DNA of 64,000 nt from Candidatus Uhrbacteria bacterium (GTDB taxonomy: Bacteria > Patescibacteriota > Patescibacteriia > GWA2-47-26). Both the position numbers and the translations under genes were made by a program. The stretch lies in NCBI GenBank assembly GCA_016187515.1, contig JACPJN010000006.1, positions 192,856 to 256,855 on the forward strand. The letters run 5' to 3'. Shown here piece by piece: positions 22,714 through 39,222 of the stretch (the first letter of the stretch is position 1; every line of letters starts with the position of its first letter). The notes under the pieces were generated by a model. The model saw only the letters and a program-made list of their open reading frames with translations. It made no database searches and was not told where the DNA came from.

Positions 22714-22748
22714 TACTCATTTTAGGTGCGATCGCAAATAAATGAGTA
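22714..22748. repeat. 35-nt hairpin repeat, copy 1 (tactcattttaggtgcgatcgcaaataaatgagta)
   Basis: A perfect 9-bp stem tactcattt/aaatgagta with an internal gcgatcgc palindrome. Identical copies lie at 38495-38529 and 39188-39222. Confidence 0.6.
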
Positions 22749-22877
22749 TGGCATAAACCAAGGAAAAGGAATTGGGGTGTAAGAATTCCAAAGGAGAACG
22801 CCATGATTTTAGAAAAAACGAGAGCCCCGAGCGGAAATGAATTCCACAAGGGGCTCGTGATGGGAACCGCGCTCCTG

Positions 22878-23285
22878 TCACATGAACAGGTGAACGATCC
22901 ATCCGAAAAAAAGAGCGAGCGACGGCTTCACAACGGACATCGCGGTTCCTTCCGCGATTTTCTCGCCGAAGCTCTTTTCTTCTTTCTTGCAGTCGTGCAT
23001 ATGGTAGGTGAGGTATCTCACCACCATGGCGATGCCGATTGCCGGAACGATGTGCAGCGCGGACGCGCCGAAGGTCGGAACCACGAACCAACCCCACAGC
23101 ACGCTCAAGGCGTAGCCGTTGAAGATGGAGCTGAAGAACATCAGGACCCCGATCCCGACGATACTGCCGAGAACAGCCTTTGCAGTCATGTTTACCTCCT
23201 CAAGGTACTGAATTACCACGATTCCCTCGTGGCGAGGCGTACCGGATTCCATGGCTCTTGCCAGTATTCCGATGCCGTTAAGCAT
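22878..23285 (-). CDS. hypothetical membrane protein (3-4 TM)
   Basis: A 135-aa ORF lying between the two tRNA-Arg-derived direct repeats. Confidence 0.5.
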   Translation of the reverse strand: MLNGIGILARAMESGTPRHEGIVVIQYLEEVNMTAKAVLGSIVGIGVLMFFSSIFNGYALSVLWGWFVVPTFGASALHIVPAIGIAMVVRYLTYHMHDCKKEEKSFGEKIAEGTAMSVVKPSLALFFGWIVHLFM

Positions 23286-23382
23286 AGCATATTACGGGTT
23301 GTATGTCAAGCCCAAAACAAAAACCAGCATTTCTGCTGTTTTATGACCTAAATCTTATGAATTCAATACCGCACCATTCCAT

Positions 23383-23399
23383 TGCTCCCAGTAGGAATC
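23383..23399 (-). repeat. Second copy of the tRNA-fragment 3' end (tgctcccagtaggaatc)
   Basis: A 17-nt exact direct repeat of 22647-22663. Confidence 0.4.
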
Positions 23400-23482
23400 T
23401 CCGCCCGAGGCGCCCGCCCGCCTTGGGAGGGGATGCGCCTTTGGCGCAGAACCGCCCAGGATCCGCCCCGCGCTTTTTCTTT

Positions 23483-23554
23483 GCGCCCACGAGGAATTGA
23501 ACCTCGATCACAGGTTCCGGAAACCTGTACTTTATCCATTAAGCTATGGGCGCA
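23483..23554 (-). tRNA. tRNA-Arg with anticodon CCG
   Basis: The reverse complement reads GCGCCCA-TA-GCTT-AATGGATA-AAGT-A-CAGGT-TTCCGGA-ACCTG-TGAT-CGAGG-TTCAATT-CCTCG-TGGGCGC-A. Confidence 0.8.
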
Positions 23555-23634
23555 CAGGAAAGGTGCGGGGTATCCATTGTCCGCCGGAGGCGGATCAGCC
23601 TTTGGCTGAAACTATAGGAGCATGCCGATGACAA

Positions 23635-24672
23635 CTAAAAAATGTTTCTTCCAAGCCGATATACCATATACCAAAACTGGCTCAAGGGCAAGTCAAAAGT
23701 GCCGGGGTAGTTCACGACCTTGCCGCCGAATCCCATTTTGAACCGCGTCATGCCAGACCAATCGCGCACACCCTCACCCCCGCCCTCTCCCATCGAGGGA
23801 GAGGGAGAGTGAATGCCCCAGAAATCGTAAAACTTGTACCCTTCTTTTTTCACCTCCTGCATAATTTGCCAATGCAAAGCATACGGTCCCATCAATGCGC
23901 GATGTGCGTAGGAGGAGGCGCCGTGCAAATACGTGGCCGTGTCGCCAAAATATCCTACCATCGCCGCGGCAAGAGGAGTGGAGTCGGAGTAGGCGATGTG
24001 GAGGCGCATATGCATGCGATTGGATATTGGAGATTGGATATTGGATATTTGTTCCGAATCTCGAATCTCTAATCTCGAATCTCCCAGTATCTCCAGTATC
24101 TTCTCATAATACCCCCGCTCATGCGTCCGAAACTTATCGCGCTTCGCGGTTTCTTCAAGCAGCTTCCAAAATTTTTCAAAGTCATCTCGAATCTCTAATC
24201 TCGAATCTCTAATCTCGACGCCTCGCCGCAAGGCGAGACGTATGTTGTATCGCGTCTTTTCATGCATCGCAGCAAGCAGTTCTTCTTCGGATTGCGCAAG
24301 ATCAATGAGCAGCGTCTGCATGGGACTTACCGACTTTGTAGGACGGAGGACGGAGGACGGAGGACGGAGTTTTTGCAGTGGTTCCATACGCACAAATATC
24401 GCTCCATGTTTTTTTGCTTTTTCTATAATTCCATCGATTAGCGTCCCGCGCGGAATAAACCAATACTTCTTACCAAACGGCAGCGGCAGCTCAATCACTT
24501 GCGCCGCACTGTGAACTGCTGACTGTGAACTATTGACTAATCTGTACACTTGCCGTCCTACAGATTCCTGAAACTCCCCCCACTCCCACGACTGCAAAAA
24601 AATTCCCGCTTGGCTTGGCCTGGAAAGTAGGGATCCGTTCCAAATTTTTGGATCATTGGCCTCAACTAACAT
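23635..24672 (-). CDS. FemAB-family peptidoglycan interpeptide-bridge aminoacyltransferase
   Basis: FemAB-like segments KTRYNIRLALRRG, YLHGASSYAHR and YDFWGI. It is riddled with simple-repeat insertions (RLEIRD twice, DGGRS etc.). I place the start at MLVEAN. Confidence 0.6.
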   Translation of the reverse strand: MLVEANDPKIWNGSLLSRPSQAGIFLQSWEWGEFQESVGRQVYRLVNSSQSAVHSAAQVIELPLPFGKKYWFIPRGTLIDGIIEKAKKHGAIFVRMEPLQKLRPPSSVLRPTKSVSPMQTLLIDLAQSEEELLAAMHEKTRYNIRLALRRGVEIRDSRLEIRDDFEKFWKLLEETAKRDKFRTHERGYYEKILEILGDSRLEIRDSEQISNIQSPISNRMHMRLHIAYSDSTPLAAAMVGYFGDTATYLHGASSYAHRALMGPYALHWQIMQEVKKEGYKFYDFWGIHSPSPSMGEGGGEGVRDWSGMTRFKMGFGGKVVNYPGTFDLPLSQFWYMVYRLGRNIF

Positions 24673-24676
24673 ATAA

Positions 24677-24907: not shown

Positions 24908-24919
24908 ACTGCTTGCAGA

Positions 24920-25222: not shown

Positions 25223-25230
25223 ATGTCAAA

Positions 25231-25785: not shown

Positions 25786-25813
25786 AAAGCGGTCACCTAC
25801 AAATTAGATTGTA

Positions 25814-28800
25814 TCATACCTTTCTCATTCCCACCCATATTTTATTGTTGTTTTCAAGGGGGATTTCGTATGACCAGGACATCTCTTGCGGCGCGTTTAC
25901 AAGTTTCACCGCGCGGGCCAGGACTGCTTTGCGCAGTTGTTTTTGATATTCTTTGACAACACCCCTCACCCCGCCCTCACCCGGCCTTTCGGCCACCCTC
26001 TCCCGCGGGGAGAGGGGAGGGTGAGGGTTCATGATTGCAATCAGTATGTCCACCTTGTCGGACGGCGTCAGTCCTGCGGCTTTGCGCGCGTCGTTGATCA
26101 GGCGCGTAAGTTCGCGAGCGAGGCCTTCTTTTTTAAGTTCCGGGGTGAGTTCGGTATTGAGTGAGACGGTGAGATTGCCGTCGGTTTTAGTGATCCAGCC
26201 GCCCCCTCCCCTCGCCCCTCCCACCAAGGGAGGGGAATTTCCAATCGTTTCCTCCCCCGCGACAGTCTCCCTCTCCCCCTGTGGGAGAGGGTTGGGGTGA
26301 GGGGTGGAGGATTTAGGAGGGGGGACAATCGTCACCTCCCTCACATTCACCTCCTCCGCAATTAATTGTAGCAAAACATCGCGATTCGCACTTTCTAATT
26401 TCCAATTTCCAATTTCCAATTTCCCCAATGGTTGTCTCACCTTCAACTTCGCTTCCGCCCGCGCCGCGTGCGCCAGCTCCACCACCTTACGCGCCGCGCT
26501 CATCTCTTCAAGCAGCGCCGTATCAATTTTTGCTTTCTTGAGTTTTGGCCAGTCGGATAAGTGAACGGATATTGGATGATTGGATGATTGGATGATTGGT
26601 GATTCATTGTCTTTTCGAATCTCTAATCTCGAATCTCTAATCTCCCGATACACATGCTCCGCCAAAAACGGCATAAATGGGGCAAGCACTTGCGACAGAG
26701 TATGTAGAACGTAGCGGGTAGTGAGTAAGGCGACGCGCTTCTCGCTTTTCTTTCCCTTAAAACGATCACGACTGCGGCGAAGATACCATTGGGAGAGATC
26801 AGCGATAAAATCCTGTATGGGCCGGCTGGCCTCGGATAATTTATATGCCTCCATATTCTCGGTCACCTCCTGAATCAGTTGATGCAACCGTGCGGCAATC
26901 CATTTGTCCAATATATGTTTAGAATTTGGAATTTTGAGTTTGGAGTTTGTTTGGGATTTGGGATTTGGAATTTGGAATTTTTCGTCTTGTGGTGCGTACA
27001 ATTTATAAAACTCCACCACATTCAAAAGCATGCTGACTACTTTATTATACATCTCGCGCACGCCTGCCTCCGAGAAATTTAAATTCTCCGCGTGCATGAC
27101 CGGAGAAGTCGCAAAGTAATAACGCAAGGCATCCGCGCCATACTTATTTATTACCGCCTCCGGTTCCGGATAATTTTTAAGGCGCTTGGCCATTTTTTTG
27201 CCATCTTCCGCCAGCACAATGCCATTGACAATCACGTTTTGAAACGCCGGCACGACTTTGCCAATCGGGATAGCTGGCGTTTTGCCGCGGGTAAGCGCCA
27301 CGGCTAGCACATGAAGCGTATAAAACCAGCCGCGGGTTTGATCCTGTCCTTCAGCAATAAACTCCGCTGGAAACGCCGCCTCAAACCGATCCTTATTTTC
27401 AAACGGATAGTGCATTTGCCCGTAGGGCATGCTTCCGGACTCAAACCAGCAATCTAATACTTCCGGAATGCGCTTCATTGTTCCTCCGCACTGCTTACAA
27501 GGAAAAGTTAATTCATCAACAATATGTTTATGCAAATCACCCACTGATTTCTCCACCAATTTTTCCAACTCTGCCACAGAACCGACAACGATAATGTTTT
27601 GACATTTGGAATTTGAATTTTGTTTGTCATTTGTAATTTGTAATTTGTAATTTCCGGTTTGGCATCGCCAAACCGGCAGCGGCGTTCCCCAAAAACGATT
27701 GCGTGAAATCGCCCAGTCGCGCGCGCCTTCAAGCCATTTGCCAAAACGCCCTTCCTTAATATACTCCGGCACCCAATTCGTCTTTTTATTGGCTGAAAGC
27801 AAAAGCTTTTTTAATTCGGTCACGCGCACAAACCAGCTGGAGGTTGCGTAATTCAAAAGCGGGGTATCACAGCGCCAGCAATGCGGATAGCTATGCGTGA
27901 TTGGCTCTGCGCGAAACAATTTGCCGCTTCCGCGCAGCCATTCTACAATTTTTTCATCTGTGGCGCCGGGATTGTCTTTGGGCTTAACTTCCCAACCCTT
28001 GAAATCCGCGACCTCCTCCTTAAAGCGGCCGTCCATACCCACATGCTGAACCAGCGGAATTTTTTGCTTTTGTCCAACCTGATAATCATTCTCGCCAAAA
28101 GCCGGCGCAATATGCACAACACCCGTACCATCTTCGGTCGTAACAAAATCTCCGGCCACCACCCGAAACGCGCGCTCGGTATCTTTATAGTATGGAAATA
28201 ATGCTTCGTATTTTAGCCCAACCAAGTCCTTGCCTTTAAGCTCTTTTACCACCTCGTATCCTCCACCAAGCATGGAAAGTCGCGCTTTGGCCAGAATGTA
28301 GTATTCGTCACCATTCGTAACCCCCCTATCCCCCCTTACCCTAAGGGGGGAATTTTCTGCGGCTCCCTCCCTTAAAGTAAGGGAGGGCTGGGGTGGGTTA
28401 TGAATCTTCACCACCACATAATCAACATCCGGATTTACCGCCAGAAGGACATTCCCCGGCAATGTCCATGGGGTTGTCGTCCAAGCCAGAAGATAAGTTG
28501 GTAAGTTGTAAGTTGTAAGTTGTAACTTACTACTTACTTGCTTACTACTTACAACTCGGAATTTCACGGTCACCGCCTTCTCTTTTACATCTTTATAGCC
28601 CATCGTTACTTCAAAATTTGAAAGCGGAGTTCCACAACGCGGACAAATATGCATGGCCTTGTATCCTTCATAAATCAACCCTTGTTTCCAAAGTTCCTTA
28701 AACACCCACCACACGCTTTCCATGTACGAAAGATCCATGGTTTTGTAGTCGCGCTCCATATCCACCCAGCGTCCAATGCGGCGGATTGTCTTTTTCCACT

Positions 28801-29173
28801 CTTCCACATAAGTCAGCACGGCCGCGCGGCAGGCCTCGTTGAATTTGGTTACCCCACAGACCTCAATCGCCTGGCGACTTGATAAATTTAAGTTCTTTTC
28901 CACGATATTTTCAACCGGAAGCCCATGGCAGTCCCAGCCCCATTTGCGCTCCACGCGATACCCGCGCATTGTCCAAAACCGCGGCACAATATCTTTCATC
29001 AGCGAAGCGACAATATGCCCGTAGTGCGGAAGGCCGGTGGCAAACGGCGGGCCGTCGTAAAACACAAAATCGCCGCGGGGCGCGGGTTTTTCCAGTGATT
29101 TCTCAAACACGTGGTGCTCGTCCCAGTATTTGAGTATTTCCTCTTCAATTTCGGGAAATTTTGGTTGAGCCAT
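25814..29173 (-). CDS. ileS: isoleucyl-tRNA synthetase
   Basis: HIGH motif (PHYGHIV) and KMAKRLKN (KMSKS). It carries at least 6 tandem-repeat insertions and 3 palindromic insertions. I place the start at MAQPKFPEIEE. Confidence 0.85.
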   Translation of the reverse strand: MAQPKFPEIEEEILKYWDEHHVFEKSLEKPAPRGDFVFYDGPPFATGLPHYGHIVASLMKDIVPRFWTMRGYRVERKWGWDCHGLPVENIVEKNLNLSSRQAIEVCGVTKFNEACRAAVLTYVEEWKKTIRRIGRWVDMERDYKTMDLSYMESVWWVFKELWKQGLIYEGYKAMHICPRCGTPLSNFEVTMGYKDVKEKAVTVKFRVVSSKQVSSKLQLTTYNLPTYLLAWTTTPWTLPGNVLLAVNPDVDYVVVKIHNPPQPSLTLREGAAENSPLRVRGDRGVTNGDEYYILAKARLSMLGGGYEVVKELKGKDLVGLKYEALFPYYKDTERAFRVVAGDFVTTEDGTGVVHIAPAFGENDYQVGQKQKIPLVQHVGMDGRFKEEVADFKGWEVKPKDNPGATDEKIVEWLRGSGKLFRAEPITHSYPHCWRCDTPLLNYATSSWFVRVTELKKLLLSANKKTNWVPEYIKEGRFGKWLEGARDWAISRNRFWGTPLPVWRCQTGNYKLQITNDKQNSNSKCQNIIVVGSVAELEKLVEKSVGDLHKHIVDELTFPCKQCGGTMKRIPEVLDCWFESGSMPYGQMHYPFENKDRFEAAFPAEFIAEGQDQTRGWFYTLHVLAVALTRGKTPAIPIGKVVPAFQNVIVNGIVLAEDGKKMAKRLKNYPEPEAVINKYGADALRYYFATSPVMHAENLNFSEAGVREMYNKVVSMLLNVVEFYKLYAPQDEKFQIPNPKSQTNSKLKIPNSKHILDKWIAARLHQLIQEVTENMEAYKLSEASRPIQDFIADLSQWYLRRSRDRFKGKKSEKRVALLTTRYVLHTLSQVLAPFMPFLAEHVYREIRDSRLEIRKDNESPIIQSSNHPISVHLSDWPKLKKAKIDTALLEEMSAARKVVELAHAARAEAKLKVRQPLGKLEIGNWKLESANRDVLLQLIAEEVNVREVTIVPPPKSSTPHPNPLPQGERETVAGEETIGNSPPLVGGARGGGGWITKTDGNLTVSLNTELTPELKKEGLARELTRLINDARKAAGLTPSDKVDILIAIMNPHPPLSPRERVAERPGEGGVRGVVKEYQKQLRKAVLARAVKLVNAPQEMSWSYEIPLENNNKIWVGMRKV
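26200..26326. repeat. Largest palindromic element (~125 nt) in-frame in ileS. Further copies lie at 25961-26030 and 28318-28402.
   Basis: It contains ccccctcccctcgcccctcccaccaagggaggggaa...ctccctctccccctgtgggagagggttggggtgaggggtgg. Confidence 0.6.
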
Positions 29174-29240
29174 AACGAGAAACAGTGTATCGCATTTATC
29201 TGCTTTTTGCAATCGCTCGGTCGTGGTATACTGTGGAGAT

Positions 29241-29759
29241 ATGAAACCAACCATTTACCTCGGCGGGGATCATGCCGCGTTTGAGCTGAAGGAAAAAATC
29301 ACGGCGTATTTGAAAACGCGCGGCTATATAGTGCGCGATTTCGGGCCGCACACGTATGATCCGGATGATGATTACCCGGATTTTGTGATTCCAATGGCCA
29401 AAGCAGTTGGGCGCGCAGGACCCCTCCTTAATCCTCCCCTTAAAAAGGGGAGGAAAAAAGTTGAGGTACGCGGCATGGCGCTTGGCGGATCCGGTATCGG
29501 CGAATGCATCGCGGCCAACAAAGTAAAAGGGGTACGCGCGGTGCGCGCGTGGGATAAAGTCAGCGCAAAGATGAGTAGATGGCACAATGATACCAATGTG
29601 CTTTGTCTTGGCGGCGGGAAAACCATGGACAAAACGCAAAACGTCGGCCTCACCTTTGCCCAAGCCAAACCAATTATCGACACTTGGCTGACCACTCCCT
29701 TCTCCAACGCCCCGCGACATGTACGGAGATTGAAAAAAATCTCAAGGATTGATAAATAA
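29241..29759 (+). CDS. rpiB: ribose-5-phosphate isomerase B
   Basis: IYLGGDHAAFELKEKI...DDYPDF...GGSGIGECIAANKVKGVRA...RWHNDTNVLCLGG matches the RpiB/LacAB family. It is divergent from ileS. There is a palindromic insertion at 29421-29458. Confidence 0.75.
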   Translation: MKPTIYLGGDHAAFELKEKITAYLKTRGYIVRDFGPHTYDPDDDYPDFVIPMAKAVGRAGPLLNPPLKKGRKKVEVRGMALGGSGIGECIAANKVKGVRAVRAWDKVSAKMSRWHNDTNVLCLGGGKTMDKTQNVGLTFAQAKPIIDTWLTTPFSNAPRHVRRLKKISRIDK

Positions 29760-29773
29760 CTCATCATCACGAT

Positions 29774-29959
29774 ATGGAAAATAAAAAACCTACAAATGTG
29801 TACGATGAAGAATATGATAAGATAATAAGAAATTTTTACGCAAAACGGGAAGCAATGTTCCGGGAACTTATCTCGATCATACATGGCAAACAAATGCTCA
29901 CCGACACTGAAGTCCAGCACATCATCACCATGGAACCCTTCCCGCAGTTAAGCGTATAA
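29774..29959 (+). CDS. hypothetical small protein
   Basis: A 61-aa ORF with no homology recognised. Confidence 0.25.
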   Translation: MENKKPTNVYDEEYDKIIRNFYAKREAMFRELISIIHGKQMLTDTEVQHIITMEPFPQLSV

Positions 29960-30019
29960 AATTTTACTCTCGCAATAAAACCCGCCCGTTGAAGGCGATT
30001 TTTGTTTTTAAAATAATAA

Positions 30020-30500
30020 GCGCCCGGATGACCGTGAAGTCAGAGCCGGGACGCGGAAAGTAACGCGAGGGATTGTTGCGGCATTGGTACTCCCCCTAGA
30101 GAGAATTGGCACCGCATTTCCTTTGTACATGCCAAACGACGAATCGGTCATTGACCCCCGGTTTTGACCCGGACAGTTGTGCGTCTATTCTGCACCACCT
30201 TATACAGCGCCGCAAGGCAGGGTACCGACCTATGGCCTCTTCATCCGATAGTGGTGTCGCGGACGGAAAGCGATCGCGCACGCATCCCTCGACTCTGGGT
30301 CCAAACAACAGCATCTCGCGGCAATTGCTACTGCTACAATACGCTGAAGCGTGACTGATACAATACGCGGGGAGACACTCCTCCTGCCAAAGTTTTCGAA
30401 GCAGCTTTTTCCAGAGTCTTTCCCAAAGGCGCATGGGTCCTCCTGTTTATGGTAGCCCCTTGTTCATTATTTTGCCAAGTTTTCGACAATTTGTCAAGGG
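30020..30500. ncRNA. candidate structured non-coding RNA (identity unresolved)
   Basis: About 480 nt with no credible ORF. It is GC-rich with many long-range complementary segments (for example gagggat/atccctc, and gtgcag-aatag-acgcac as a hairpin). In minus-strand reading there are patches resembling bacterial RNase P RNA (CCATAGG, TAAGGTG..GTGCAGAATAGACGCAC, CCCGGCTCTGAC). Confidence 0.2.
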
Positions 30501-30561
30501 CGGGGTACAATGGAAGCATTCGTGAGTTATTCGTCTCTTATTTGTGAGTTATTTGTGTTTT

Positions 30562-31308
30562 ATGAAAGAAATAATCCCCACCATTCTTGTGCAAGATCGT
30601 TTGGAGTTTGAACGGCGGCTTGGTATAATGGAGGGGAAGATTCCGGTTGCGCAGATGGATATTATGGATGGGAAGTTCGTTAAAAACACCACCTTTTCCG
30701 ACCCGAAAATCGCCGCGCGCTACCAAGTGGACTATGAGTTGGATTTGATGGTGGCCGATCCTGGGCCGGTGCTGGAGAAGTGGCACGACACCCTCCCCCC
30801 CGCCCGTGGCGAGGCTCGCCTTTGGCGGCAGCCCCCTCCCATTAAGGGAGGGGGAAAAGTGGTACGAGCGTTTGTGCATGCCGAGATAAAAAAACCTCTG
30901 GCGTCGCTTCTTGAAAAAATAAAATCGTACGGCTGGGAAGCCGGGATTGCGCTCAATCCGGATACAGGGTGGGAAGTGGTGGAGCCGTATATCGCTCGTA
31001 ACCCCTCCCGACCTCCCCTTACCCTAAGGGGAGGAGAAACTGTGGACTCCATACTTTTTATGACGGTCTATCCCGGGCAAAACGGCGCGGCGTTTCAGCC
31101 GAAAGTAATTCCGAAGATTACGCAGTTTCATAAAGCGTATCCAAAGATAATAATTGAGGTGGACGGCGGAGTAAACGAGAAGACCTTACCCCGCCTACTC
31201 ACGGCCGGCGTTACTCGTTTTGCGGTTGGCAGTGCGATATGGTCCGCGCCGGATCCCGTTGGAGAATATAAAAAACTTTTTCAATTAACAAATAACTCAC
31301 TAATATAA
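30562..31308 (+). CDS. rpe: ribulose-phosphate 3-epimerase
   Basis: It has DIMDGKFV and the end-motif VDGGVN. There are two palindromic insertions at 30790-30858 and 30999-31038. The leader carries 11-nt repeats. Confidence 0.75.
   Translation: MKEIIPTILVQDRLEFERRLGIMEGKIPVAQMDIMDGKFVKNTTFSDPKIAARYQVDYELDLMVADPGPVLEKWHDTLPPARGEARLWRQPPPIKGGGKVVRAFVHAEIKKPLASLLEKIKSYGWEAGIALNPDTGWEVVEPYIARNPSRPPLTLRGGETVDSILFMTVYPGQNGAAFQPKVIPKITQFHKAYPKIIIEVDGGVNEKTLPRLLTAGVTRFAVGSAIWSAPDPVGEYKKLFQLTNNSLI
30790..30858. repeat. Palindromic element in-frame in rpe (second copy at 30999-31038)
   Basis: ccctcccccccgcccgtggcgaggctcgcctttggcggcagccccctcccattaagggagggggaa. Confidence 0.55.
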
Positions 31309-31377
31309 ACGAATGACCCACCTATAGGAATTCGTGAGCCATACGTCTTCTTATTCGTGAACCATTCGTCAATTCAA

Positions 31378-31470
31378 TATGAAGAAATTATTTTGGATCC
31401 TCATTGGTCTCGTGATTGCGCTGACGGTGGTAATTCTGGTGCTTGCCTTGGTCGCGGCGCTTCGCGCTTA
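31378..31470 (+). CDS. putative 30-aa single-TM peptide
   Basis: MKKLFWILIGLVIALTVVILVLALVAALRA*. It is flanked on both sides by attcgtgag repeat arrays. Confidence 0.3.
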
Positions 31471-31568
31471 AACACAAATAGCTCACGAATAGAAACGAAT
31501 AGCTCACGGATATATTCGTGCGCCATTCGTAATTTGTGAGTTATTTGTAACCAATTCGTGAGCTATTC

Positions 31569-32432
31569 GTGCATATGCATATTCATGACGATAAGATCAA
31601 GGAGTTAGAAGAGAAAGCTCTCCAGGTGCGCGAGCTTATCATTGATATGCTTGTCGCGGCGGGCTCCGGCCATTCGGCCGGCCCCTTGGACATGGCCGAC
31701 ATTTTTGTCGCGCTATATTTTCATATTCTGCACCATGATCCGAAAAACCCGGACTGGCCCGAACGCGACCGGCTGATTTTATCCTGCGGCCATATTTGTC
31801 CGGTGCGTTATGCAACTATGGCGCTCGCGGGATATTTTCCAATTGAAGAATTAAAGACGCTGCGCAAGTTCGGCACGCGCCTGCAAGGGCACCCGGAACG
31901 CCTGCGTCTTCCCGGATCCGAGACCACTTCCGGCCCGCTTGGCGCCGGACTGGCACAATCCTGCGGCCTGGCCTACGCCGCGCGTATGGACGGCAAGACC
32001 TGGCGTACTTATTGCATTACCTCGGACGGCGAGCATGAAGCCGGATTGCATTGGGAAGCCGTGCTGTGGGCCGGAAAATATAAACTTTCTAATTTGACGT
32101 GCATTGTAGACCGCAATACCATTCAAATTGACGGCGGGACCGAGGAGATCATGCCGCTTGAACCCCTGCGCGCCAAATACGAGGCCTTTAATTGGCATGT
32201 GCTGGAAGTCGGCGGGCACAATCTGGAACAATTTGTTGACGCGGTGGAAGAAGCCAAATCCATTTTGGAAAAACCCACGGTCATCATCGCGCACACCATC
32301 CCCGGCCGCGGCGTTTCGTTCATGGAGAAAAAATTCGAATGGCACGGGATCCCGCCGAATAAAGAACAAGCGGCCCAGGCATTGCGTGAACTACGCACTC
32401 TTGGAGGTAAGATTACTTCGGAGCACGAGTGA
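31569..32432 (+). CDS. tkt: transketolase, N-terminal (TPP-binding) subunit
   Basis: GSGHSAGPLDMADIFVALYF...GHPE....TTSGPLGAGL matches Transketolase_N. This is the split form. Confidence 0.8.
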   Translation: MHMHIHDDKIKELEEKALQVRELIIDMLVAAGSGHSAGPLDMADIFVALYFHILHHDPKNPDWPERDRLILSCGHICPVRYATMALAGYFPIEELKTLRKFGTRLQGHPERLRLPGSETTSGPLGAGLAQSCGLAYAARMDGKTWRTYCITSDGEHEAGLHWEAVLWAGKYKLSNLTCIVDRNTIQIDGGTEEIMPLEPLRAKYEAFNWHVLEVGGHNLEQFVDAVEEAKSILEKPTVIIAHTIPGRGVSFMEKKFEWHGIPPNKEQAAQALRELRTLGGKITSEHE

Positions 32433-32482
32433 TATTTGACTAATGGCTCACAAATGCGTAACAAATAGCTCACGAATAACAA

Positions 32483-32911
32483 ATGAAAGACGAATTACTC
32501 ACAAATAAAGTGCTGCATGCGGAATTATCGTACAAATTCGTTTCACTGGCAATTGAAGTCAGTAAAAAGTATGGCTATCTTCATAAAGAACAAGTGTATC
32601 AAAAAGTTATGGAGGAGTTGCTCGCTAAAAATGGTATTCCTTTCATCGCCCAGCCAAGGATTAATGTGCATTCGCTCGATACGGGTAAATCTTTAGCGGT
32701 ATATGTTCCGGACATATTAGTAGATCAAAAGATCATCGTAGAACTCAAGGCATTGCCATTTGTTCCTAAACCGCAGATTAACAAGTTAGAACAATATCTA
32801 AAAACATCCCGCTATGAGGTCGCTTATATGGTAAACTTCGGCACGCCAAAAGCACAGATTGTCAGAAGAATTTATACCAATGATCGAAAACCATTTGTGA
32901 GCCATTTGTAA
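32483..32911 (+). CDS. GxxExxY-family protein (PD-(D/E)xK-like)
   Basis: ELSYKFVSLAIEV...YGYLHKEQVYQKVMEEL...IIVELKAL...VNFG matches the GxxExxY family. It is inserted between the two tkt halves. Confidence 0.7.
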   Translation: MKDELLTNKVLHAELSYKFVSLAIEVSKKYGYLHKEQVYQKVMEELLAKNGIPFIAQPRINVHSLDTGKSLAVYVPDILVDQKIIVELKALPFVPKPQINKLEQYLKTSRYEVAYMVNFGTPKAQIVRRIYTNDRKPFVSHL

Positions 32912-32934
32912 TTATTCGTGAGTAATTTGTCACT

Positions 32935-33927
32935 ATGCCGGTAAGCCAAACTGCTAAATTAGTGCCCACACTGTTTGACACCCAGTCCCTCAAACAAGTA
33001 CCCACCAGAGATGGCTACGGTCTTGGCATAGTTGAAGCCGGAAAGGAAAACCCCAACGTCGTCGTGCTTTGCGCGGATCTTACCGAATCCACGCGGAATT
33101 TGGAATTTAAAAAACAATTTCCCGACCGGTTTATCCAGTGCGGGGTGCATGAGCAATTTCTGGCTGCCGCCGGAGCCGGGCTTGCGCTGGCCGGAAAAAT
33201 TCCGTTTATCTCCTCGTATGCGATGTTTTGCCCGGGCCGCGCCTGGGAACAAATCCGCACCAACATTTGTCTTAATGAGGTAAATGTCAAAATCGCCGGG
33301 GCCCACGCCGGGGTCTCCGTCGGCCCGGATGGCGCAACGCATCAAGCCATTGAGGATATCGCGATCATGCGCCCGATTCCCAATATGCAGATTATCGTGC
33401 CCTGTGATATGATTGAGACGCGCAAAGCCACACTCGCTGCCGCGAAACTCCCCGGCCCTTTCTACGTGCGCTTCGCGCGCGAAAAGTCGCCGGTTTTTAC
33501 AACCGAAGAAACGCCTTTTGAATTCGGGAAGGCCACGGTGTTTCACGATGGGAGCGACGTGGCAATTGTGGCCTGTGGACCGCTTGTCCATGAAGCAATG
33601 CTTGCCGCGCGAGAACTGGAAAAAAGGAAAATCTCCGCGCGGGTCATCAACTCGCACACTGTAAAACCCCTTGATGAAGACACAATACTAGCCGTGGCAG
33701 AAGAATGCGGCGCAATCGTTACAGTAGAAGAGCACCAAATCACCGGCGGACTGGGCGGGGCGATTGCAGAGTTTCTGGTCAAACACGCGCCAGTGCCGAT
33801 CGAAATGATCGGTATCCAAAACTTATTCGGCCAAAGTGGAAACCCTCGGGAACTTTTAGAACATTACGAACTCACCGCCCCGCATATCGTAGAATCCTGC
33901 CTAAGAGTACTGGCAAGGAAAAAATAA
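32935..33927 (+). CDS. tkt: transketolase, C-terminal (pyrimidine-binding) subunit
   Basis: ...CGVHEQFLAAAGAGLALAGKIPFISSYAMF...GPDGATHQAIEDIA matches Transket_pyr plus the C-terminal domain. Confidence 0.8.
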   Translation: MPVSQTAKLVPTLFDTQSLKQVPTRDGYGLGIVEAGKENPNVVVLCADLTESTRNLEFKKQFPDRFIQCGVHEQFLAAAGAGLALAGKIPFISSYAMFCPGRAWEQIRTNICLNEVNVKIAGAHAGVSVGPDGATHQAIEDIAIMRPIPNMQIIVPCDMIETRKATLAAAKLPGPFYVRFAREKSPVFTTEETPFEFGKATVFHDGSDVAIVACGPLVHEAMLAARELEKRKISARVINSHTVKPLDEDTILAVAEECGAIVTVEEHQITGGLGGAIAEFLVKHAPVPIEMIGIQNLFGQSGNPRELLEHYELTAPHIVESCLRVLARKK

Positions 33928-34061
33928 CCCTCTCTTTAACATACCTTATGGCCTTCCACCCCAAACCCTCCCGTCCAACGGCTTTTCTTTTTCCGCCCTT
34001 GCGCGCGCCGGAGGAAAAAGGCGATTTTCGCCAAGAAATTTCCTGGCGCATCTTTCGCATC

Positions 34062-34661
34062 ATGGCCGAATTTATTGACGGTTTTCAGTTTTTGGCCGAC
34101 CTTAAAAAAGAAGTAAGTTTTTTCGGCTCCGCGCGGTTCAAGCCGTCCAACAAGCACTACCGCGAAGCGGAGAAACTCGCGCGGATGCTCGGCAAAGCCG
34201 GATTTACCGTAATTACCGGCGGCGGTCCGGGAGTGATGGAGGCGGCGAACAAGGGGGCAATTGAAACCGGCGCGGAGTCGGTCGGACTGAATATTCAGCT
34301 CCCGAAAGAACAGCGGGTTAACCGGTATGTAAAGCATGGCATTGGTTTCCATTATTTTTTTACCAGAAAAGTTATGCTCTCGGCTTCGGCGCAGGCCTAC
34401 GTATTCTTTCCCGGCGGATTTGGAACGCTTGATGAAATGTTTGAACTCATTACGCTTATTGAAACGGAAAAAGCCGAGCGCATCCCTATTGTACTTATCG
34501 GCAAGGATTACTGGAGCGGACTGCTTAGCTGGATTGAAGAACAAGTATATAAAAAACACCACGCGATAGAAAGGGGAGACATGAAAATTTACACGCTGGT
34601 GGACTCGGTGGAGGAGGCGTATGAGATTGTGGTGAAGTCAAAAGAACGAGCGTATTTCTAG
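34062..34661 (+). CDS. LOG-family protein (cytokinin riboside 5'-monophosphate phosphoribohydrolase-like)
   Basis: SFFGSAR....VITGGGPGVMEAANKGA...PGGFGTLDEMFE is the TIGR00730 signature. The ORF-track start at 33705 overlaps tktC by 220 nt and is rejected. An alternative start is 33948. Confidence 0.7.
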   Translation: MAEFIDGFQFLADLKKEVSFFGSARFKPSNKHYREAEKLARMLGKAGFTVITGGGPGVMEAANKGAIETGAESVGLNIQLPKEQRVNRYVKHGIGFHYFFTRKVMLSASAQAYVFFPGGFGTLDEMFELITLIETEKAERIPIVLIGKDYWSGLLSWIEEQVYKKHHAIERGDMKIYTLVDSVEEAYEIVVKSKERAYF

Positions 34662-34677
34662 TGATGAATCATGAATT

Positions 34678-35067
34678 ATGAATCAAGAATCAAGGGGATT
34701 GAAATCGTTTACTGATCTCAATGCATGGAAAGAAGGACATGCACTCGTTCTACAAATTTACAAAACAACAAAGGCCTGGCCGAAAGAGGAAGTGTTTGGA
34801 CTAATAAGCCAGATACGTCGCTGTGCAGTATCAATTACTTCCAACATTGCCGAGGGTTTTAGCAGACAATCGTATAAAGAAAAAGTACAGTTTTACGCAA
34901 TCGCACTCGGATCAGTCACCGAACTTCAAAACCAACTCCTGATCGCGAAAGATGTGGGGTACATCGCTATTGACAATTTCAACACAATTGCACAACAGTC
35001 AATCAAGGTACACAAAATTATCAATGGTCTGGTCAAAAGCTCAAAATCCATGATTCATAATTCGTGA
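34678..35067 (+). CDS. four-helix-bundle protein of the '23S rRNA intervening-sequence protein' family (TIGR02436)
   Basis: ...AWKEGHALVLQIYKTTKAWPKEEVFGLISQIRRCAVSITSNIAEGFSRQS.KE...F. It is bracketed by tgattcat/atgaatca repeats at 34663-34700 and 35043-35083. Confidence 0.75.
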   Translation: MNQESRGLKSFTDLNAWKEGHALVLQIYKTTKAWPKEEVFGLISQIRRCAVSITSNIAEGFSRQSYKEKVQFYAIALGSVTELQNQLLIAKDVGYIAIDNFNTIAQQSIKVHKIINGLVKSSKSMIHNS

Positions 35068-35083
35068 TTCTTGATTCATCAAT

Positions 35084-36061
35084 ATGCTCAATCTCCTCTC
35101 CATTGGCGACATTAAACTGGATACTTTTGTAGTAGTACCGGAAACCTCCAGTTTTTGTAAACTGCAAATGCCGGAGTATTTGCTTTGCTTTAATTATGGC
35201 GAGAAAATTCCGGTCGGCGCGGTGGAATCGCAAATCGCCGGAAGCGCGCCAAACGTCGCGGTCGGACTTTCGCGATTAGGGTTTAAGACCAGTGTATTTA
35301 GCTTTATGGGACAAGACGGCATTCATAAGCTCGCGCTCGATGTGCTTAAAAAGGAAAAAGTGGACGCGCGTCTGATTAAGACCTTAACGGGCGCGAAAAG
35401 CAGTTTTTCCGCGGTGTTAAACTATAAAGGAGAAAAGACCATTTTGGCCTCGCACATTTCATACCCTTACGCCCTTCCGAAGCGCTTGCCGCAAATGGAA
35501 TGGATGTACGTGTGTGAAATGGGACATAATTACAAACGGCTTTACCGTGAAGCGGCGCGCTGCGCAAAAAATAGGCCGCTAAAAATCGGGTTTAACCCGG
35601 GCGCTATTCAAATTATGGAACGCGATAAAGCGCTTTATGAGCTGATCGCGCAAACCGAGGTGTTGTTTGTTAATGTTGGCGAAGCGCACGCCATCTTAAA
35701 ACAAGAACGCCAACCCCTGCCCATTGAGCGCGTCGCGTCAGAATTGTATAAAATGGGGCCAAAAATTATCGTCATTACCGACGGCCGCAAAGGCGCCTAC
35801 GCCTTTGACGGGAACCAGCTGGATTTCTGCCCAGTATTTCCTTCCAAGCGCGTGGAGGCAACCGGCGCCGGAGATGCCTTTGCAACCGGCTATCTTGGGG
35901 CGCTGATGCGCAAGATTGGCCATCGGGAAGCGCTGCGCTGGGGCGCGGCCAACGGGGCGTCGGTGGTCGGTTTTGTCGGGCCGCAACCCGGACTTTTGAC
36001 CCTTCCGCAGATGCGCGCGACTTTGCGCAAGCACGCGAATATAAAAGCCGTGAAAAGGTAA
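35084..36061 (+). CDS. PfkB-family carbohydrate kinase
   Basis: Ribokinase-like fold with the C-terminal GAGDAFATGYL motif. Confidence 0.7.
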   Translation: MLNLLSIGDIKLDTFVVVPETSSFCKLQMPEYLLCFNYGEKIPVGAVESQIAGSAPNVAVGLSRLGFKTSVFSFMGQDGIHKLALDVLKKEKVDARLIKTLTGAKSSFSAVLNYKGEKTILASHISYPYALPKRLPQMEWMYVCEMGHNYKRLYREAARCAKNRPLKIGFNPGAIQIMERDKALYELIAQTEVLFVNVGEAHAILKQERQPLPIERVASELYKMGPKIIVITDGRKGAYAFDGNQLDFCPVFPSKRVEATGAGDAFATGYLGALMRKIGHREALRWGAANGASVVGFVGPQPGLLTLPQMRATLRKHANIKAVKR

Positions 36062-36104
36062 AAAAATTGACACCGCCCATGCATATATAGTATGCTACGG
36101 GTAT

Positions 36105-36374
36105 ATGGCCCACACCAATCTTATCTCGCAAATCAGCACCGCACGCTTAAGCCGTGATCTTGAAGAGATTGATCGGCTGCTGCATCGTATTAAAAAACAT
36201 ATTGACACTTTGCCGCCTCACACTGCAGACGCTAACCTATCCAGCGTATGGAAACGCACTGCCGGTATTATTTCCCAGGAACGTGCCGAGGAAATTATTG
36301 CGTCAATCGCCCAATCGCGTAAGAAGTGGAGTGATAATTCCGCAAGAATAGAACAGATGTGGCATTCCGAATAA
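36105..36374 (+). CDS. hypothetical small protein
   Basis: An 89-aa ORF. There is a TTGACA...TAGTAT-like promoter upstream at about 36066-36095. Confidence 0.35.
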   Translation: MAHTNLISQISTARLSRDLEEIDRLLHRIKKHIDTLPPHTADANLSSVWKRTAGIISQERAEEIIASIAQSRKKWSDNSARIEQMWHSE

Positions 36375-36465
36375 TCATAAGCTATGAGCTTTCATTACCA
36401 AAAACCTCCGTGATTTCAAAGATATTCCTGATCTCGTGGTCCGGGATCATTTTTAGCGTCCTCTC

Positions 36466-37356
36466 ATGGTAATGTCCCTGCACTCCACACTTATCCGTGC
36501 CGCGAAAGAAAAATGGGCCGTACCGCATTTTAATGTCGGCGACTTTGAGCAGTTTCGCGGGGTGTGTGAAGCGGCGGCAAAGTTGCGCGCGCCGGTCATG
36601 ATCGGCACTTCCGAAGGCGAACGCGATTTTTTAGGTCTGCCCCAGTCGGTCGCGCTGGTAAAGGCGTTCCGCGATCAGCTGCATCTGCCTATTTTTCTTA
36701 ATGCTGATCATACCCGAAGTGTACGGGCCGCCAAAGCGGCCATTGACGCCGGGTACGACAGTATCCATATTGACCTTTCGCGAGAGCCGTGGAACACGAA
36801 CCTTAAGGGTACGCGAGAAATAGTGCGCTACGCGCGTGAAAAATGTAAAAGGAAAAATGTAAAATGTAAAATTAGTGTTGAAGGCGAATTGGGCTACATT
36901 GTAACTGAATCATCAAAAGTGTATAAAAAGAAAATTTTGGTTGACCCTTCCACCTTTACAAAGCCGGAGGAGGCAAAAAAATTTGTGCGGCTTACCGGAG
37001 TTGATCGTTTTGCGCCGGCGGTTGGAAATTTGCACGGCATCGCCGCAAACAAACCAAAACTTGACTTTGTACTTATAAAAAAACTACGCGGTATAATTCC
37101 GATGAATGTCGCGCTGGTGCTTCACGGCGGATCCGGAAATAGTCCGGCGGCGTTTAAAAAAGCGATCAAGCTCGGTATCAACAATATCCACATTTCCACC
37201 GAACTGCGCATCGCGTATGTGAAATCCGAACACGCCTCGCTCCATCGCCAAAAAAACGAACTCGCCCCGTACAAACTCGCCGCGCCGGTAGTTGAGGCCG
37301 TGCGCAAAAAAGCCGAATATTTTATTAGATTGTTCGGGGCCTATAATAAAGCATAG
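36466..37356 (+). CDS. fba: class II fructose/tagatose-bisphosphate aldolase
   Basis: ...PHFNVGDFEQ....LNADHT....HGGSG. An in-frame repeat aaaatgtaaaa sits at 36838-36870. Confidence 0.75.
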   Translation: MVMSLHSTLIRAAKEKWAVPHFNVGDFEQFRGVCEAAAKLRAPVMIGTSEGERDFLGLPQSVALVKAFRDQLHLPIFLNADHTRSVRAAKAAIDAGYDSIHIDLSREPWNTNLKGTREIVRYAREKCKRKNVKCKISVEGELGYIVTESSKVYKKKILVDPSTFTKPEEAKKFVRLTGVDRFAPAVGNLHGIAANKPKLDFVLIKKLRGIIPMNVALVLHGGSGNSPAAFKKAIKLGINNIHISTELRIAYVKSEHASLHRQKNELAPYKLAAPVVEAVRKKAEYFIRLFGAYNKA

Positions 37357-37357
37357 T

Positions 37358-38443
37358 ATGTTTGATGTCATTACAATAGGAAGCGCGACCCGCGACGTGT
37401 TTTTGTTTGTCCAAGCGCTTCATCCGCATCGGGAATCAGACGCGGTAAGTAAAATTGAGGCCTGTCTTCCCTTCGGCGCTAAAATTGATATTGAACGCCT
37501 TGCTTTTGATACCGGCGGAGGAGCAACCAACAGCGCCGCGACGTTTGCGCGGCTGGGAAAATTTGAAGTTGCGGCGCTCACGCGCATAGGACAAGACAGC
37601 CGCGGACAAAGTATTTTAAAAGTGCTTCACGCCGACAACATTGATACTTCGTTGGTGCAAGTCACCAATAAAGATCATACCGCTTATTCTTCAATCCTTT
37701 CTCCAACCCACGCGCATAGTGAGCGCACGATTTTGGTCTATCGCGGGGCATCCTCATGCATTGAGAGCAGTAAAATTCCGTGGACTAAACTGCGTGCCAA
37801 ATGGTTTTATATATCTTCGCTTGGCGGCGATCTGTTACTTTTAAAGAAACTTATCGACCATGCTCGAAGGATAAAAGCTCAAGTCGCCTGGAATCCCGGC
37901 GGTCAAGAACTCTCCAAACTCACCCCTCCCCTTAGGTTAAGGGGAGGTTGGGAGGGGTTACGACAATCAATTGACTTCCTCATCCTCAACCGTGAAGAAG
38001 CCGCAAAACTCACTGGAAAAAAATTCGATGACACCAAAGGATTGCTTCGCGCGCTGGCGCGTACTACACACATCGCAGTCATGACCGACGGCCCTAAAGG
38101 CGCGTATGCCATCGTAGGTTCACAGTCATCAGTTCACAGTTCACAGTATCGTAATTCAAAAACTAATTACCCAATTACCAAATTACCTAATCACCAAACG
38201 GCCTACTTCGTCCCCTCTGTCGGCCACAAACCGGAAAATCTCACCGGCGCCGGTGACGCTTTCGGTTCCGGCTTTGTAACCGGCTGGATCAAAAGCCGCG
38301 GCGATATCAAATACGCCTTACGCTTGGCTTCGTTCAATGCTGACAGTGTAGTCCAACACGTCGGCGCGAAAAACGGAATTCTTGAGAAAATTCCTTCCGC
38401 AAAGCAGCTGCAAAAGTTGCCCGTAAAGACACTGCACATTTAG
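37358..38443 (+). CDS. PfkB-family sugar kinase (second copy)
   Basis: I place the start at MFDVITIGSATRDV. The C-terminus has a GAGDAF motif. There is a palindromic insertion at 37921-37962 and tandem repeats at 38120-38200. Confidence 0.65.
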   Translation: MFDVITIGSATRDVFLFVQALHPHRESDAVSKIEACLPFGAKIDIERLAFDTGGGATNSAATFARLGKFEVAALTRIGQDSRGQSILKVLHADNIDTSLVQVTNKDHTAYSSILSPTHAHSERTILVYRGASSCIESSKIPWTKLRAKWFYISSLGGDLLLLKKLIDHARRIKAQVAWNPGGQELSKLTPPLRLRGGWEGLRQSIDFLILNREEAAKLTGKKFDDTKGLLRALARTTHIAVMTDGPKGAYAIVGSQSSVHSSQYRNSKTNYPITKLPNHQTAYFVPSVGHKPENLTGAGDAFGSGFVTGWIKSRGDIKYALRLASFNADSVVQHVGAKNGILEKIPSAKQLQKLPVKTLHI

Positions 38444-38494
38444 CACCCCATTTCAAATATCCCATCCAGAAGACAACCTGGAAAGATTATGCTA

Positions 38495-38529
38495 TACTCA
38501 TTTTAGGTGCGATCGCAAATAAATGAGTA
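38495..38529. repeat. 35-nt hairpin repeat, copy 2
   Basis: Identical to 22714-22748. It overlaps the 5' end and leader of the PaaX-like gene. Confidence 0.6.
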
Positions 38530-39130
38530 TGAGAAAGCGCGTACGCGAGTGAGTATGAAATCAAAATTTAGACAATTTCAAATCGTCTTGCTGCAAATCT
38601 ACGCCGGATATCGCGAGCTTGATCATGCGCTTGCCTCATACAATCCGCGCAGCCACACACCTGGCTGGGATGCCACCGGCTATGCAGAGGACGCGCGCAA
38701 ATATGCAAAGCGGGATATAAAGCGACTCCATCGCCATATTGATTATCTCAAACGAGTCGGCTATGTAGAGCGCGTCCAAGAAGGTGAGGAGCAACTCTTG
38801 AAATTAACGGCCAAAGGCAAATACGAACTTCTTCGTTTGCGCTTTGTTGAACACCTGATGCAACAAAAGAAAGAGTTATGGGATCGCAAATGGTGGATCG
38901 TGATTTTTGATATTCCGGAACAAATGAAAAAGTACCGCAATTTTTTCCGCCTCCTTCTCAAAAAGAATGGTTTTAAAATGGTTCAGCGCTCGGTATGGAT
39001 CACGCCCTACAATCCGCGACCTTACATTAATGATCTTTTAGTATACCTTCGCCTTTCTAAATACTTCGAAATCATTGAAGCCGACTGCGATCGTTGTAGC
39101 CCAGCGCTTTTTAAAAAATTCAAACCGTAA
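38507..39130 (+). CDS. PaaX-like transcriptional regulator: N-terminal winged HTH plus a PaaX_C-type C-terminal domain
   Basis: The wHTH region reads IDYLKRVGYVERVQEGEEQLLKLTAKG. The C-terminal part WDRKWWIVIFDIPEQMKKYRNFFRLLLKKNGFKMVQRSVWITP follows the PaaX C-domain pattern (W.G.W.L...IPE...R..L...L...GF..L...VW). The true start may be MKSKF at 38557. Confidence 0.5.
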   Translation: MRSQINEYEKARTRVSMKSKFRQFQIVLLQIYAGYRELDHALASYNPRSHTPGWDATGYAEDARKYAKRDIKRLHRHIDYLKRVGYVERVQEGEEQLLKLTAKGKYELLRLRFVEHLMQQKKELWDRKWWIVIFDIPEQMKKYRNFFRLLLKKNGFKMVQRSVWITPYNPRPYINDLLVYLRLSKYFEIIEADCDRCSPALFKKFKP

Positions 39131-39187
39131 ACAATATCTGCATAAGGACACCGCTTATACCCCTGCTAAAAGAAGCGAAAATCTCTG

Positions 39188-39222
39188 TACTCATTTTAGG
39201 TGCGATCGCAAATAAATGAGTA
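39188..39222. repeat. 35-nt hairpin repeat, copy 3
   Basis: Identical to the other two copies. It lies 58 nt after the PaaX-like stop. Confidence 0.6.

Follow-up and report, generated by a model that had tools for sequence, protein, structure and literature searches.

What is the role of a palindromic repeat that stands, letter for letter the same, on both sides of one gene and once more some 15 kb away? The question is raised by a stretch of 64 kb, called here the window, of a 355.8-kb contig of Candidatus Uhrbacteria, which belongs to the Candidate Phyla Radiation (CPR, Patescibacteria). The repeat, TACTCATTTTAGGTGCGATCGCAAATAAATGAGTA, is 35 nt long and has three exact copies in the window, all on the + strand with 0 mismatches; as features they are strandless, and they lie at 22714..22748 (copy 1), 38495..38529 (copy 2) and 39188..39222 (copy 3), spaced by 15,781 and 693 nt. 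Copies 2 and 3 are the upstream and downstream sites of a module whose gene (38555..39130, + strand) encodes a 191-aa protein with a winged helix and a Cas2-like (PaaX_M) domain, identified by Pfam, NCBI identity and an AlphaFold2 model. Copy 1 is a solo site with no gene of this family nearby. On balance, we lean towards reading the three 35-bp repeats as duplex palindromic binding sites of this winged-helix/Cas2-like protein, which would act as a dimer and as a short repressor of the PaaX type.

A preliminary description of this DNA had reported three identical 35-nt copies with a 9-bp stem and an internal palindrome, and both points hold: the matches starting at 22714, 38495 and 39188 are exact, and each copy consists of 9-bp arms (TACTCATTT/AAATGAGTA) that enclose, across spacers of 4-5 nt, the 8-bp palindromic core GCGATCGC. 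Identity between the copies extends 1-2 nt past the 35-mer ((A/G)TACTCA...GAGTATG) and then ends abruptly; beyond the repeat, copies 1 and 3 have merely a weak similarity over ~20 nt. No fourth copy is present in the window at ≤3 mismatches (100 shuffles, 0 expected), and the pattern CTCATTT-N5-GCGATCGC-N4-AAATGAG has 0 matches in the GTDB species genomes, the JGI metagenomes and IMG/VR. The genome-wide count proposed earlier has in this way been made for 64 of the contig's 355.8 kb, with 3 copies, and for three public collections, with 0. Folded as single-stranded DNA, the 35-mer has an energy of -5.6 kcal/mol (z = -3.2). Since no T-run follows any of the three copies, they are not intrinsic terminators, as had been said from the start, and terminator scans do not call them. 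A search of Rfam, at gathering thresholds and at E ≤ 1, finds no family for the repeat. A genome-wide signal of the HIP1 (highly iterated palindrome) type was also considered and rejected; GCGATCGC occurs 8 times in the window against 2.5 expected, and 3 of these 8 lie within the 35-mers.

The flanked gene had been called PaaX-like, and its domains agree. The protein is 100% identical to an NCBI protein of Candidatus Uhrbacteria, and PaaX_M (PF20803) matches residues 108-178 (67.6 bits, cutoff 24, E = 1e-18). The Cas2 models give weaker matches, PF09827 at 1e-6 over model positions 2-39 of 74 and TIGR01573 with 31 bits against a cutoff of 24.5 over positions 3-44 of 96. The Cas2 alignment is thus restricted to the N-terminal half, in a domain that is fused to a winged helix and does not stand alone as in Cas2 (~90-100 aa); NCBI, in calling these proteins “CRISPR-associated endonuclease Cas2”, over-annotates them at the level of a domain. 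Nor is the protein a full-length PaaX. The C-terminal PaaX domain PF08223 (PaaX_C) gives no match, the chain ends after the Cas2-like domain, and the PaaX equivalog model TIGR02277 gives 29.9 bits, far under its 264.55-bit cutoff. The AlphaFold2 model (50 family members; pLDDT 85.5, with the first 40 residues at low confidence) shows helices and a beta-hairpin wing within residues 40-84 and, C-terminal to them, a ferredoxin-like domain. Foldseek places E. coli PaaX (8A39, 1.4e-4) at the top of the PDB, then Rv0674 and then many Cas2 structures, and the N-terminal part of the family profile matches the winged helices of AspA, TubR, MarR and PadR (E = 2e-4 to 5e-2). When the family consensus iViFDIPe...QkSVw is compared with Cas2 IVFFDLP...QKSVY, the Asp of FDIPE, invariant across 50 members of the family, falls on the “FDLP” motif of Cas2. 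The family is large, with 1,919 clusters (50% identity) in a profile search at E ≤ 1e-10, mostly of 170-230 aa. The start of the gene had been placed at 38507 (GTG), so that copy 2 overlapped it. This does not stand: the identical NCBI protein and all orthologues agree on ATG 38555, and with the corrected start copy 2 ends 25 nt before the start codon, outside the open reading frame (ORF). Copy 3 lies 57 nt past the stop codon.

The strongest evidence comes from the relatives of this gene. Protein-based locus scans returned 2 + 2 loci, and the relatives retrieved, with 25-73% identity, represent Uhrbacteria and Portnoybacteria and so two or more lineages of the CPR. Each of the 11 independent members retrieved (the window, L001, L002/3, L004, L005/7, L006, a second paralogue in L007, L012, L013, L014/15 and L016) is flanked on both sides by a palindrome whose layout is shared and whose sequence is private. 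The layout is arm, ~4 nt, 8-bp palindromic core, ~4 nt, arm, over a length of 26-44 bp, and the cores found across the family include GCGATCGC, CCGATCGG, GCGGCCGC, GCTATAGC, GCCATGGC and GGAATTCC. L001 has CTCAATTATTTGCGATCGCACCTTGTTGAG on both sides (29/30 identical), and L005/L007 has a site of the same type with copies 27/30 identical, one of the changes bettering the pairing of the arms. The L002/L003 site, ATCTCCCATTTATTTTGCGATCGCAAAATAAATGGGAGAT, is a perfect 40-mer with copies 34/40 identical, the second overlapping the stop codon; in L004 (GTACCATCTATTTCCGATCGGAAATAGATGGTAC) the contig breaks off within the second copy; and L016 carries GTCTACAAACCCCTGGAATTCCATAAGTTTGTAGAC on both sides, 36/36 identical. 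L006, a Portnoybacteria locus whose protein is 35% identical, has the core GCTATAGC and a perfect 44-mer downstream, L013 has the core GCCATGGC and L014/15 the core GCGGCCGC. The same core GCGGCCGC is found in 4 copies around the second L007 paralogue (15258-15294, 15986-16019, 16192-16229 and 16386-16423), whose left and right arms are mosaic, as though they had been swapped at the core. In L012 (core ACGATCGT) the two sites are in inverted arrangement; their outer 23 nt are perfectly identical and their inner arms have diverged. In a control with 95 long ORFs of the same loci, ordered by the longest word common to both flanks, the family genes rank 2, 3, 6, 8, tied 9-12 and tied 13-14. A private palindrome pair around each gene looks like a rule of this family, one that we have not found described in the searchable literature.

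How widely the sites occur beyond the genes they flank, and how the modules are placed, can be judged from several of these loci. One solo site lies within the 64-kb window and none in three loci of 16-20 kb. In L001 and L005/L007 the module has the same place, adjoining the RNase P RNA gene (rnpB), and the DNA similarity between L001 and L007 starts precisely at the outer edge of the upstream palindrome, the module and the RNase P RNA being common to both. The 20-kb locus of L007 has nothing in common with the window except the module gene. Relative to the gene, the asymmetry of the spacers is oriented in the window opposite to L001/L005, with both copies flipped together. In L007, from a related Uhrbacteria genome, a 94-nt G/C-rich hairpin-type element (7319-7412 and 8484-8577, copies 88% identical) brackets an unrelated 1-kb gene, so in these genomes the PaaX-like genes are not the only ones that repeats flank.

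The preliminary description spoke of hairpins, and here the relatives lead to a different view. When 23 sites were mirrored about their centres, positions 1-5 were paired in 91-100% of the sites, corresponding to an 8-10-bp core; positions 6-8, the spacers, were paired in 48-65% and positions 9-19, the arms, in 61-87%; from position 22 outwards pairing fell to a background of 13-30%. Several sites are perfect loopless palindromes of 32-44 bp. Because the centre is always palindromic and several of the perfect palindromes have no loop, the pattern points to symmetric recognition of a duplex and not to selection for a hairpin, and the sites are best read as double-stranded operators rather than as hairpins or terminators. 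Long split palindromes are already tied to the PaaX fold, since the E. coli PaaX operator is TGATTC-N27-GAATCA; at its own promoter, PaaX represses by steric hindrance, blocking RNA polymerase (review PMC9493321).

The position of the upstream copy fits such a role. The regulator gene of the window has a promoter-like signal (38470..38498, + strand; AAGACA-17-TATACT with TG upstream, a consensus match) whose -10 has 4 nt in common with the left arm of copy 2, so that copy 2 covers the predicted -10 and the transcription start. Promoter-like hexamers, again called as consensus matches, are overlapped by the upstream site in 8 of the 11 loci; in seven loci a -35-like hexamer lies inside the right arm of that site, in the window it is the -10 that meets the left arm, and in L002 and L014 the promoter-like signals stand upstream of the palindrome. 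Across the 11 loci the upstream site ends 25-117 nt ahead of the start codon. Because of this overlap and this closeness, the upstream copy looks like an autoregulatory operator, as predicted from promoter consensus. The downstream site begins -25 to +57 nt relative to the stop codon in all 11 loci. In L001/L005 it abuts the promoter of the RNase P RNA; in the window two genes converge towards it, and it occupies the 3′ region common to both. Two earlier suggestions gain from these results: autoregulation, from the 8 of 11 overlaps and the PaaX precedent (PMC9493321), and operators of a dimeric winged-helix protein, made plausible by palindromes that co-vary around every relative examined, by the overlap with promoters and by the split palindrome of PaaX.

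We picture the mechanism as follows. The two winged helices of a dimer would read the outer arms, ~26 bp apart centre to centre, and the palindromic core between them would be covered by the Cas2-like dimerisation domain. Since copy 2 covers the predicted -10 and transcription start, the protein bound there would silence its own gene, in the manner of PaaX at the Px promoter; position and homology both suggest this. Copy 3 might cooperate with copy 2 through a repression loop of ~690 bp, or the protein bound there might act as a roadblock that insulates the gene, and this is the least supported step of the scheme. The gene with its two private sites would then be a self-contained module throughout a large CPR protein family. 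Copy 1 would be a third site of the same specificity and no promoter operator, most likely a relic or by-product of the copying or moving of sites.

Several points weigh against a purely regulatory role. The promoter calls are consensus matches only, and binding, transcription and looping are all inferred. An operator right after the regulator's stop codon, as in 11 of 11 loci at -25 to +57 nt, is no known feature of PaaX or of typical autoregulators, and either role for it, looping or roadblock, is conjecture. Moreover, the copies of the window, like those of L016, do not differ at a single non-symmetric position of their spacers, which favours recent copying over selection on contact bases. 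Most of the 20-kb loci hold sites only around the gene itself, and a regulator that serves only itself needs another rationale. Copy 1 is away from promoters, and the invariant Asp of the Cas2 motif (FDIPE) has been kept, which leaves room for a catalytic role.

The surroundings of the module in the window are those of an insertion. Positions 38444..40115 (strandless) form a segment of ~1.7 kb, defined by synteny with two related Uhrbacteria contigs, that holds copy 2, the regulator gene, copy 3 and a GC-rich gene. The gap between the PfkB kinase and 2-hydroxyacid dehydrogenase genes is 1.7 kb in the window, 75 nt in L009 and 12 nt in L010/L011, and L009 (Uhrbacteria RIFCSPLOWO2_12_FULL_47_10) is colinear over 733-9482 with window positions 29169-41159, about nine genes. 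The module lies, then, within an insertion between metabolic genes that are otherwise adjacent. The GC-rich gene past copy 3, earlier called a foreign ORF, is indeed unusual in composition (39423..39935, - strand; GC 58% against 51% for the window). It is convergent with the regulator gene, encodes an orphan protein of 170 aa and has a promoter-like signal at 40072-40044 and a terminator-like one at 39322-39297; its product has just 2 homologues among 5.8 billion proteins and no family match in the profile libraries, and in Logan runs it is present on 8 contigs. The regulator gene itself has a GC content of 44% against the same 51%. No relatives of its product were found in viral, phage and plasmid collections (locus scan of viral contigs, tblastn): tblastn gave no match in phages, and in plasmids the matches were full-length PaaX genes of Streptomyces only.

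In the loci examined, the neighbours of these genes are the PfkB kinase, the 2-hydroxyacid dehydrogenase, RNase P RNA, a HEPN/nucleotidyltransferase (MNT) pair and small membrane proteins. None of them is a paa (phenylacetate catabolism) gene; there is no cas gene among the listed neighbours, in which no search aimed at cas1 was made, and no integrase in the genes adjacent to the module. The HEPN/MNT pair stands directly downstream of a palindrome-flanked family member (L014 3367-4055, L015 1290-1978). A 42-nt motif, ATTTGTGAGTAATTTGTCTTTAATTCGTGAGCTATTTGTG, stands directly upstream of three different genes in the window (30518-30559, 31532-31573 and 40093-40134), one of them the 2-hydroxyacid dehydrogenase gene.

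Copy 1 has a different setting. It had been placed beside a 3′ fragment of a tRNA-Arg(CCG), at the edge of a small remnant island, and both descriptions are borne out. The fragment (22647..22708, - strand) runs from the 3′ strand of the D-arm to the acceptor end and is called from a sub-threshold tRNA match of 27 bits and an alignment; it comprises ~55-60 nt of a tRNA-Arg(CCG) other than the intact one at 23481-23554 (-), to which it is ~70% identical. Copy 1 lies 12 nt from the 5′ break of this truncated tRNA and ~65-95 nt from the terminator-like hairpin of a membrane-protein gene of the phage “moron” type (22878..23285, - strand; phrog_2169, E = 4e-14; promoter-like signal at 23309-23281). 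The last 17 nt of the fragment (22647-22663) are repeated at 23383-23399, and this direct repeat bounds an islet of 736 bp that holds copy 1. A canonical phage attachment-site (att) duplication at tRNA-Arg was considered and rejected; the 17-nt direct repeat exists, but the fragment is on the “wrong” side, and its identity to the intact tRNA is only ~70%. The remnant that forms the islet is scrambled. Neither hidden Markov models nor tblastn detected a remnant of the regulator gene between 22000 and 24000. Copy 1 overlaps no promoter-like signal, lying between a terminator-like hairpin and a truncated tRNA with the nearest predicted promoter ~255 nt away on the minus strand, and the idea that it marks a remote target of the regulator is therefore unsupported. 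Copies 1 and 3 each border foreign-looking genes.

These observations can also be explained by movement, the alternative already raised in the preliminary description, which the insertion and the identity of the flanking copies back in a real though indirect way. In that account, which we regard as possible though doubtful, the palindromes would be recombination or cleavage sites of a small mobile or selfish cassette made up of one site and the gene. The protein, targeted by its winged helix and with its Cas2-like nuclease domain over the core, or else a partner enzyme, would cut or exchange strands within the symmetric core of 8 bp; DNA with one site, as a circle or a fragment, would enter another site and so end up between two copies, and solo copies would be empty targets or excision scars. 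The absence of the module's insertion from two syntenic relatives speaks for this, as do the low GC content of the gene (44% against 51%), the foreign-looking genes that copies 1 and 3 both abut, and the Cas2 Asp that 50 family members keep without exception. In the window (35/35) and in L016 (36/36) the flanking copies do not differ, even in their non-symmetric spacers, with divergence elsewhere (29/30 in L001, 27/30 in L005, 34/40 in L002) that would be clock-like from the time of insertion. The joint reversal of spacer orientation between the window and L001/L005, the mosaic arms of the four sites of the L007 paralogue and the inverted sites of L012, with identical outer 23 nt and diverged inner arms as if an element had split a perfect palindrome, would all follow from such events, and the upstream palindrome's outer edge is exactly the point from which L001 and L007 are homologous. 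However, no recombinase or transposase fold is found in the protein or adjoining it, the palindrome edges show neither a target-site duplication nor an exact empty site, a second gene lies in the insertion outside the flanked unit, and viral, phage and plasmid collections hold no relatives. Solo copies are few (1 in 64 kb, 0 in three 16-20-kb loci), and L001 and L005/L007 retain the module at the same place beside RNase P RNA, which indicates stable inheritance there. Cas2 is not known to have strand-transfer activity. The boldest version of this account, to which we give slightly less credence still, is that the palindrome-gene-palindrome unit is a previously unrecognised minimal mobile or selfish element of the CPR, in which a wH/Cas2-domain (winged-helix/Cas2-domain) dimer cuts or exchanges DNA in the 8-bp core of its private ~35-bp palindrome, so that the gene may excise, invert and re-insert at other sites.

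The remaining explanations find less room. That the palindromes act in RNA, as stem-loops at either end of the mRNA (5′ and 3′) that stabilise it or are processed by the Cas2-like domain, a relative of VapD and the Cas2 ribonucleases, is improbable: the downstream copy, at -25 to +57 nt from the stop codon, must be transcribed, promoter-like signals lie upstream of the palindrome in L002 and L014, and the arms keep their complementarity despite sequence change, but in 8 of 11 loci a predicted promoter lies inside or over the upstream site, which would as a result not be transcribed intact. A palindromic centre, always present here, is not required of a loop, the spacers are often unpaired, and Rfam has no matching family. 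We think it very improbable that the 35-mer is a generic intergenic repeat (repetitive extragenic palindromic [REP]-like, terminator or insulator) of a repeat-rich CPR genome and that its placement around the gene is incidental. The window does contain many other hairpin and heptamer repeat families, and the unrelated 94-nt element of L007 brackets another gene; against this stand merely 3 copies in 64 kb, 0 in the three public collections scanned, and flanking by private sequences in 11 of 11 family members from at least two CPR lineages. Next to nothing is left of the idea of a degenerate CRISPR-like mini-array in which the 35-nt units are the repeats and the Cas2-annotated gene occupies the “spacer”. 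Length and partial palindromy are typical of CRISPR repeats, and the NCBI name and the TIGR01573 score (31 bits against 24.5) point the same way, but the spacings of 693 and 15,781 nt, where 30-40 nt would be expected, effectively refute it; moreover, the alignment covers no more of Cas2 than its N-terminal half, in a fusion with a winged helix, site lengths in the family range over 26-44 bp, and the upstream copy overlies a predicted promoter.

The window is rich in other features. G/C-rich, REP-like hairpin families of the CCTCCCCTTAGG..TAAGGGGAGG type, unrelated to the 35-mer, lie between genes at 525-565, 5888-5973, 12209-12293, 12877-12961, 14790-14841, 23769-23811, 26200-26303, 28321-28404, 30996-31046, 37913-37963 and 43444-43530, and one pair of them forms an 85-nt inverted repeat (12877-12961/43446-43530). 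Tandem repeats of the heptamer type (AATCTCG, AATTTCC, TGTGAAC and similar) occur as well, including those at 24042-24221 and 26392-26649. The paired segments 6877-6960/10596-10679 and 8057-8213/9036-9192, 77-79% identical and ~1-3.7 kb apart, suggest paralogous genes or domains. The Rfam motif DUF3800-IX is found at 7889-7954 (-) with 51 bits, above its gathering score. A LAGLIDADG_1 homing-endonuclease ORF (62296-62805, -) has 5S rRNA on one side and, on the other, a match to part of 23S rRNA (model positions 2164-2636), the rRNA-related segments being 61424-61541 and 63593-64000; an intron probably splits the 23S gene, a frequent situation in the CPR.

If the flanking rule holds family-wide (~1,900 clusters), there would be hundreds to thousands of natural repressor-operator pairs, a catalogue from which recognition by PaaX-type winged helices might be decoded and orthogonal switches built. 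The family may be a major one of DNA-binding proteins in the CPR, organisms with few known regulators, and the result corrects the widespread mis-annotation of its members as “CRISPR-associated endonuclease Cas2” in CPR genomes. Should the unit prove mobile, it would represent a new type of element, the first mobile element on a Cas2-type domain, with a new activity of the Cas2 fold, and possibly a living analogue of the pairing of Cas2 with palindromic repeats.

Among known systems, several resemble parts of this one. Genes that are single-copy and bracketed by lineage-specific short palindromes, with additional solo copies elsewhere, are familiar from the REP/RAYT (REP-associated tyrosine transposase) systems and their REPINs. 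RAYTs, however, are homologues of HUH/Y1 transposases, whereas the present protein gives only PaaX_M, Cas2 and winged-helix matches in Pfam, NCBIfam, PHROGs and PADLOC, and REPs have tens to hundreds of copies that act as single-stranded hairpins, in contrast to 3 copies in 64 kb whose symmetry points to duplex recognition. The geometry recalls lox/FRT and dif/pdif: sites of ~34-36 bp with two inverted arms around an 8-bp centre, genes between two sites, and apparent exchange of arms and flips of orientation between family copies. Unlike those systems, the module has no tyrosine or serine recombinase in or beside it and the centre of the family site is symmetric, and one host Xer enzyme could not serve all the sites because each paralogue in one genome has a different one. 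An integron cassette (attC) was also considered and rejected; such cassettes go with an IntI integrase and attI nearby and with attC sites that keep an R/L box layout but vary from cassette to cassette, and here the flanking sites are identical and symmetric, with no integrase in the adjacent genes. With CRISPR Cas2 the protein has the beta-alpha-beta core and a conserved motif in common; it differs in its fusion to a DNA-binding domain and in repeats that form no CRISPR array. In the repression loops of LacI (O1/O2), GalR (OE/OI) and lambda CI (OL/OR), as here, two operators lie several hundred bp apart with one of them at the promoter; the auxiliary operators there are weaker and not placed systematically after the regulator's stop codon, and looping in the present case is a matter of inference.

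The closest parallel is PaaX, the phenylacetyl-CoA-responsive repressor of E. coli and Pseudomonas. Both proteins have an N-terminal winged helix followed by a Cas2-like PaaX_M domain, E. coli PaaX is the best fold match in the PDB, and its operator is a long split palindrome through which its own promoter is repressed (PMC9493321). The differences lie in length (191 aa against ~305-316 aa) and in the absence of the PaaX_C effector domain, in the lack of paa genes seen near the family genes, in the retained Asp motif of Cas2, and in a site that has an extra 8-bp palindromic core and a second, identical counterpart right after the gene. The truncated winged-helix/Cas2-like family of the CPR, the tripartite site with its symmetric 8-bp core and the invariable private flanking palindromes are what we did not find in the searchable literature; what is known from PaaX is the protein fold and autoregulation through a long palindrome.

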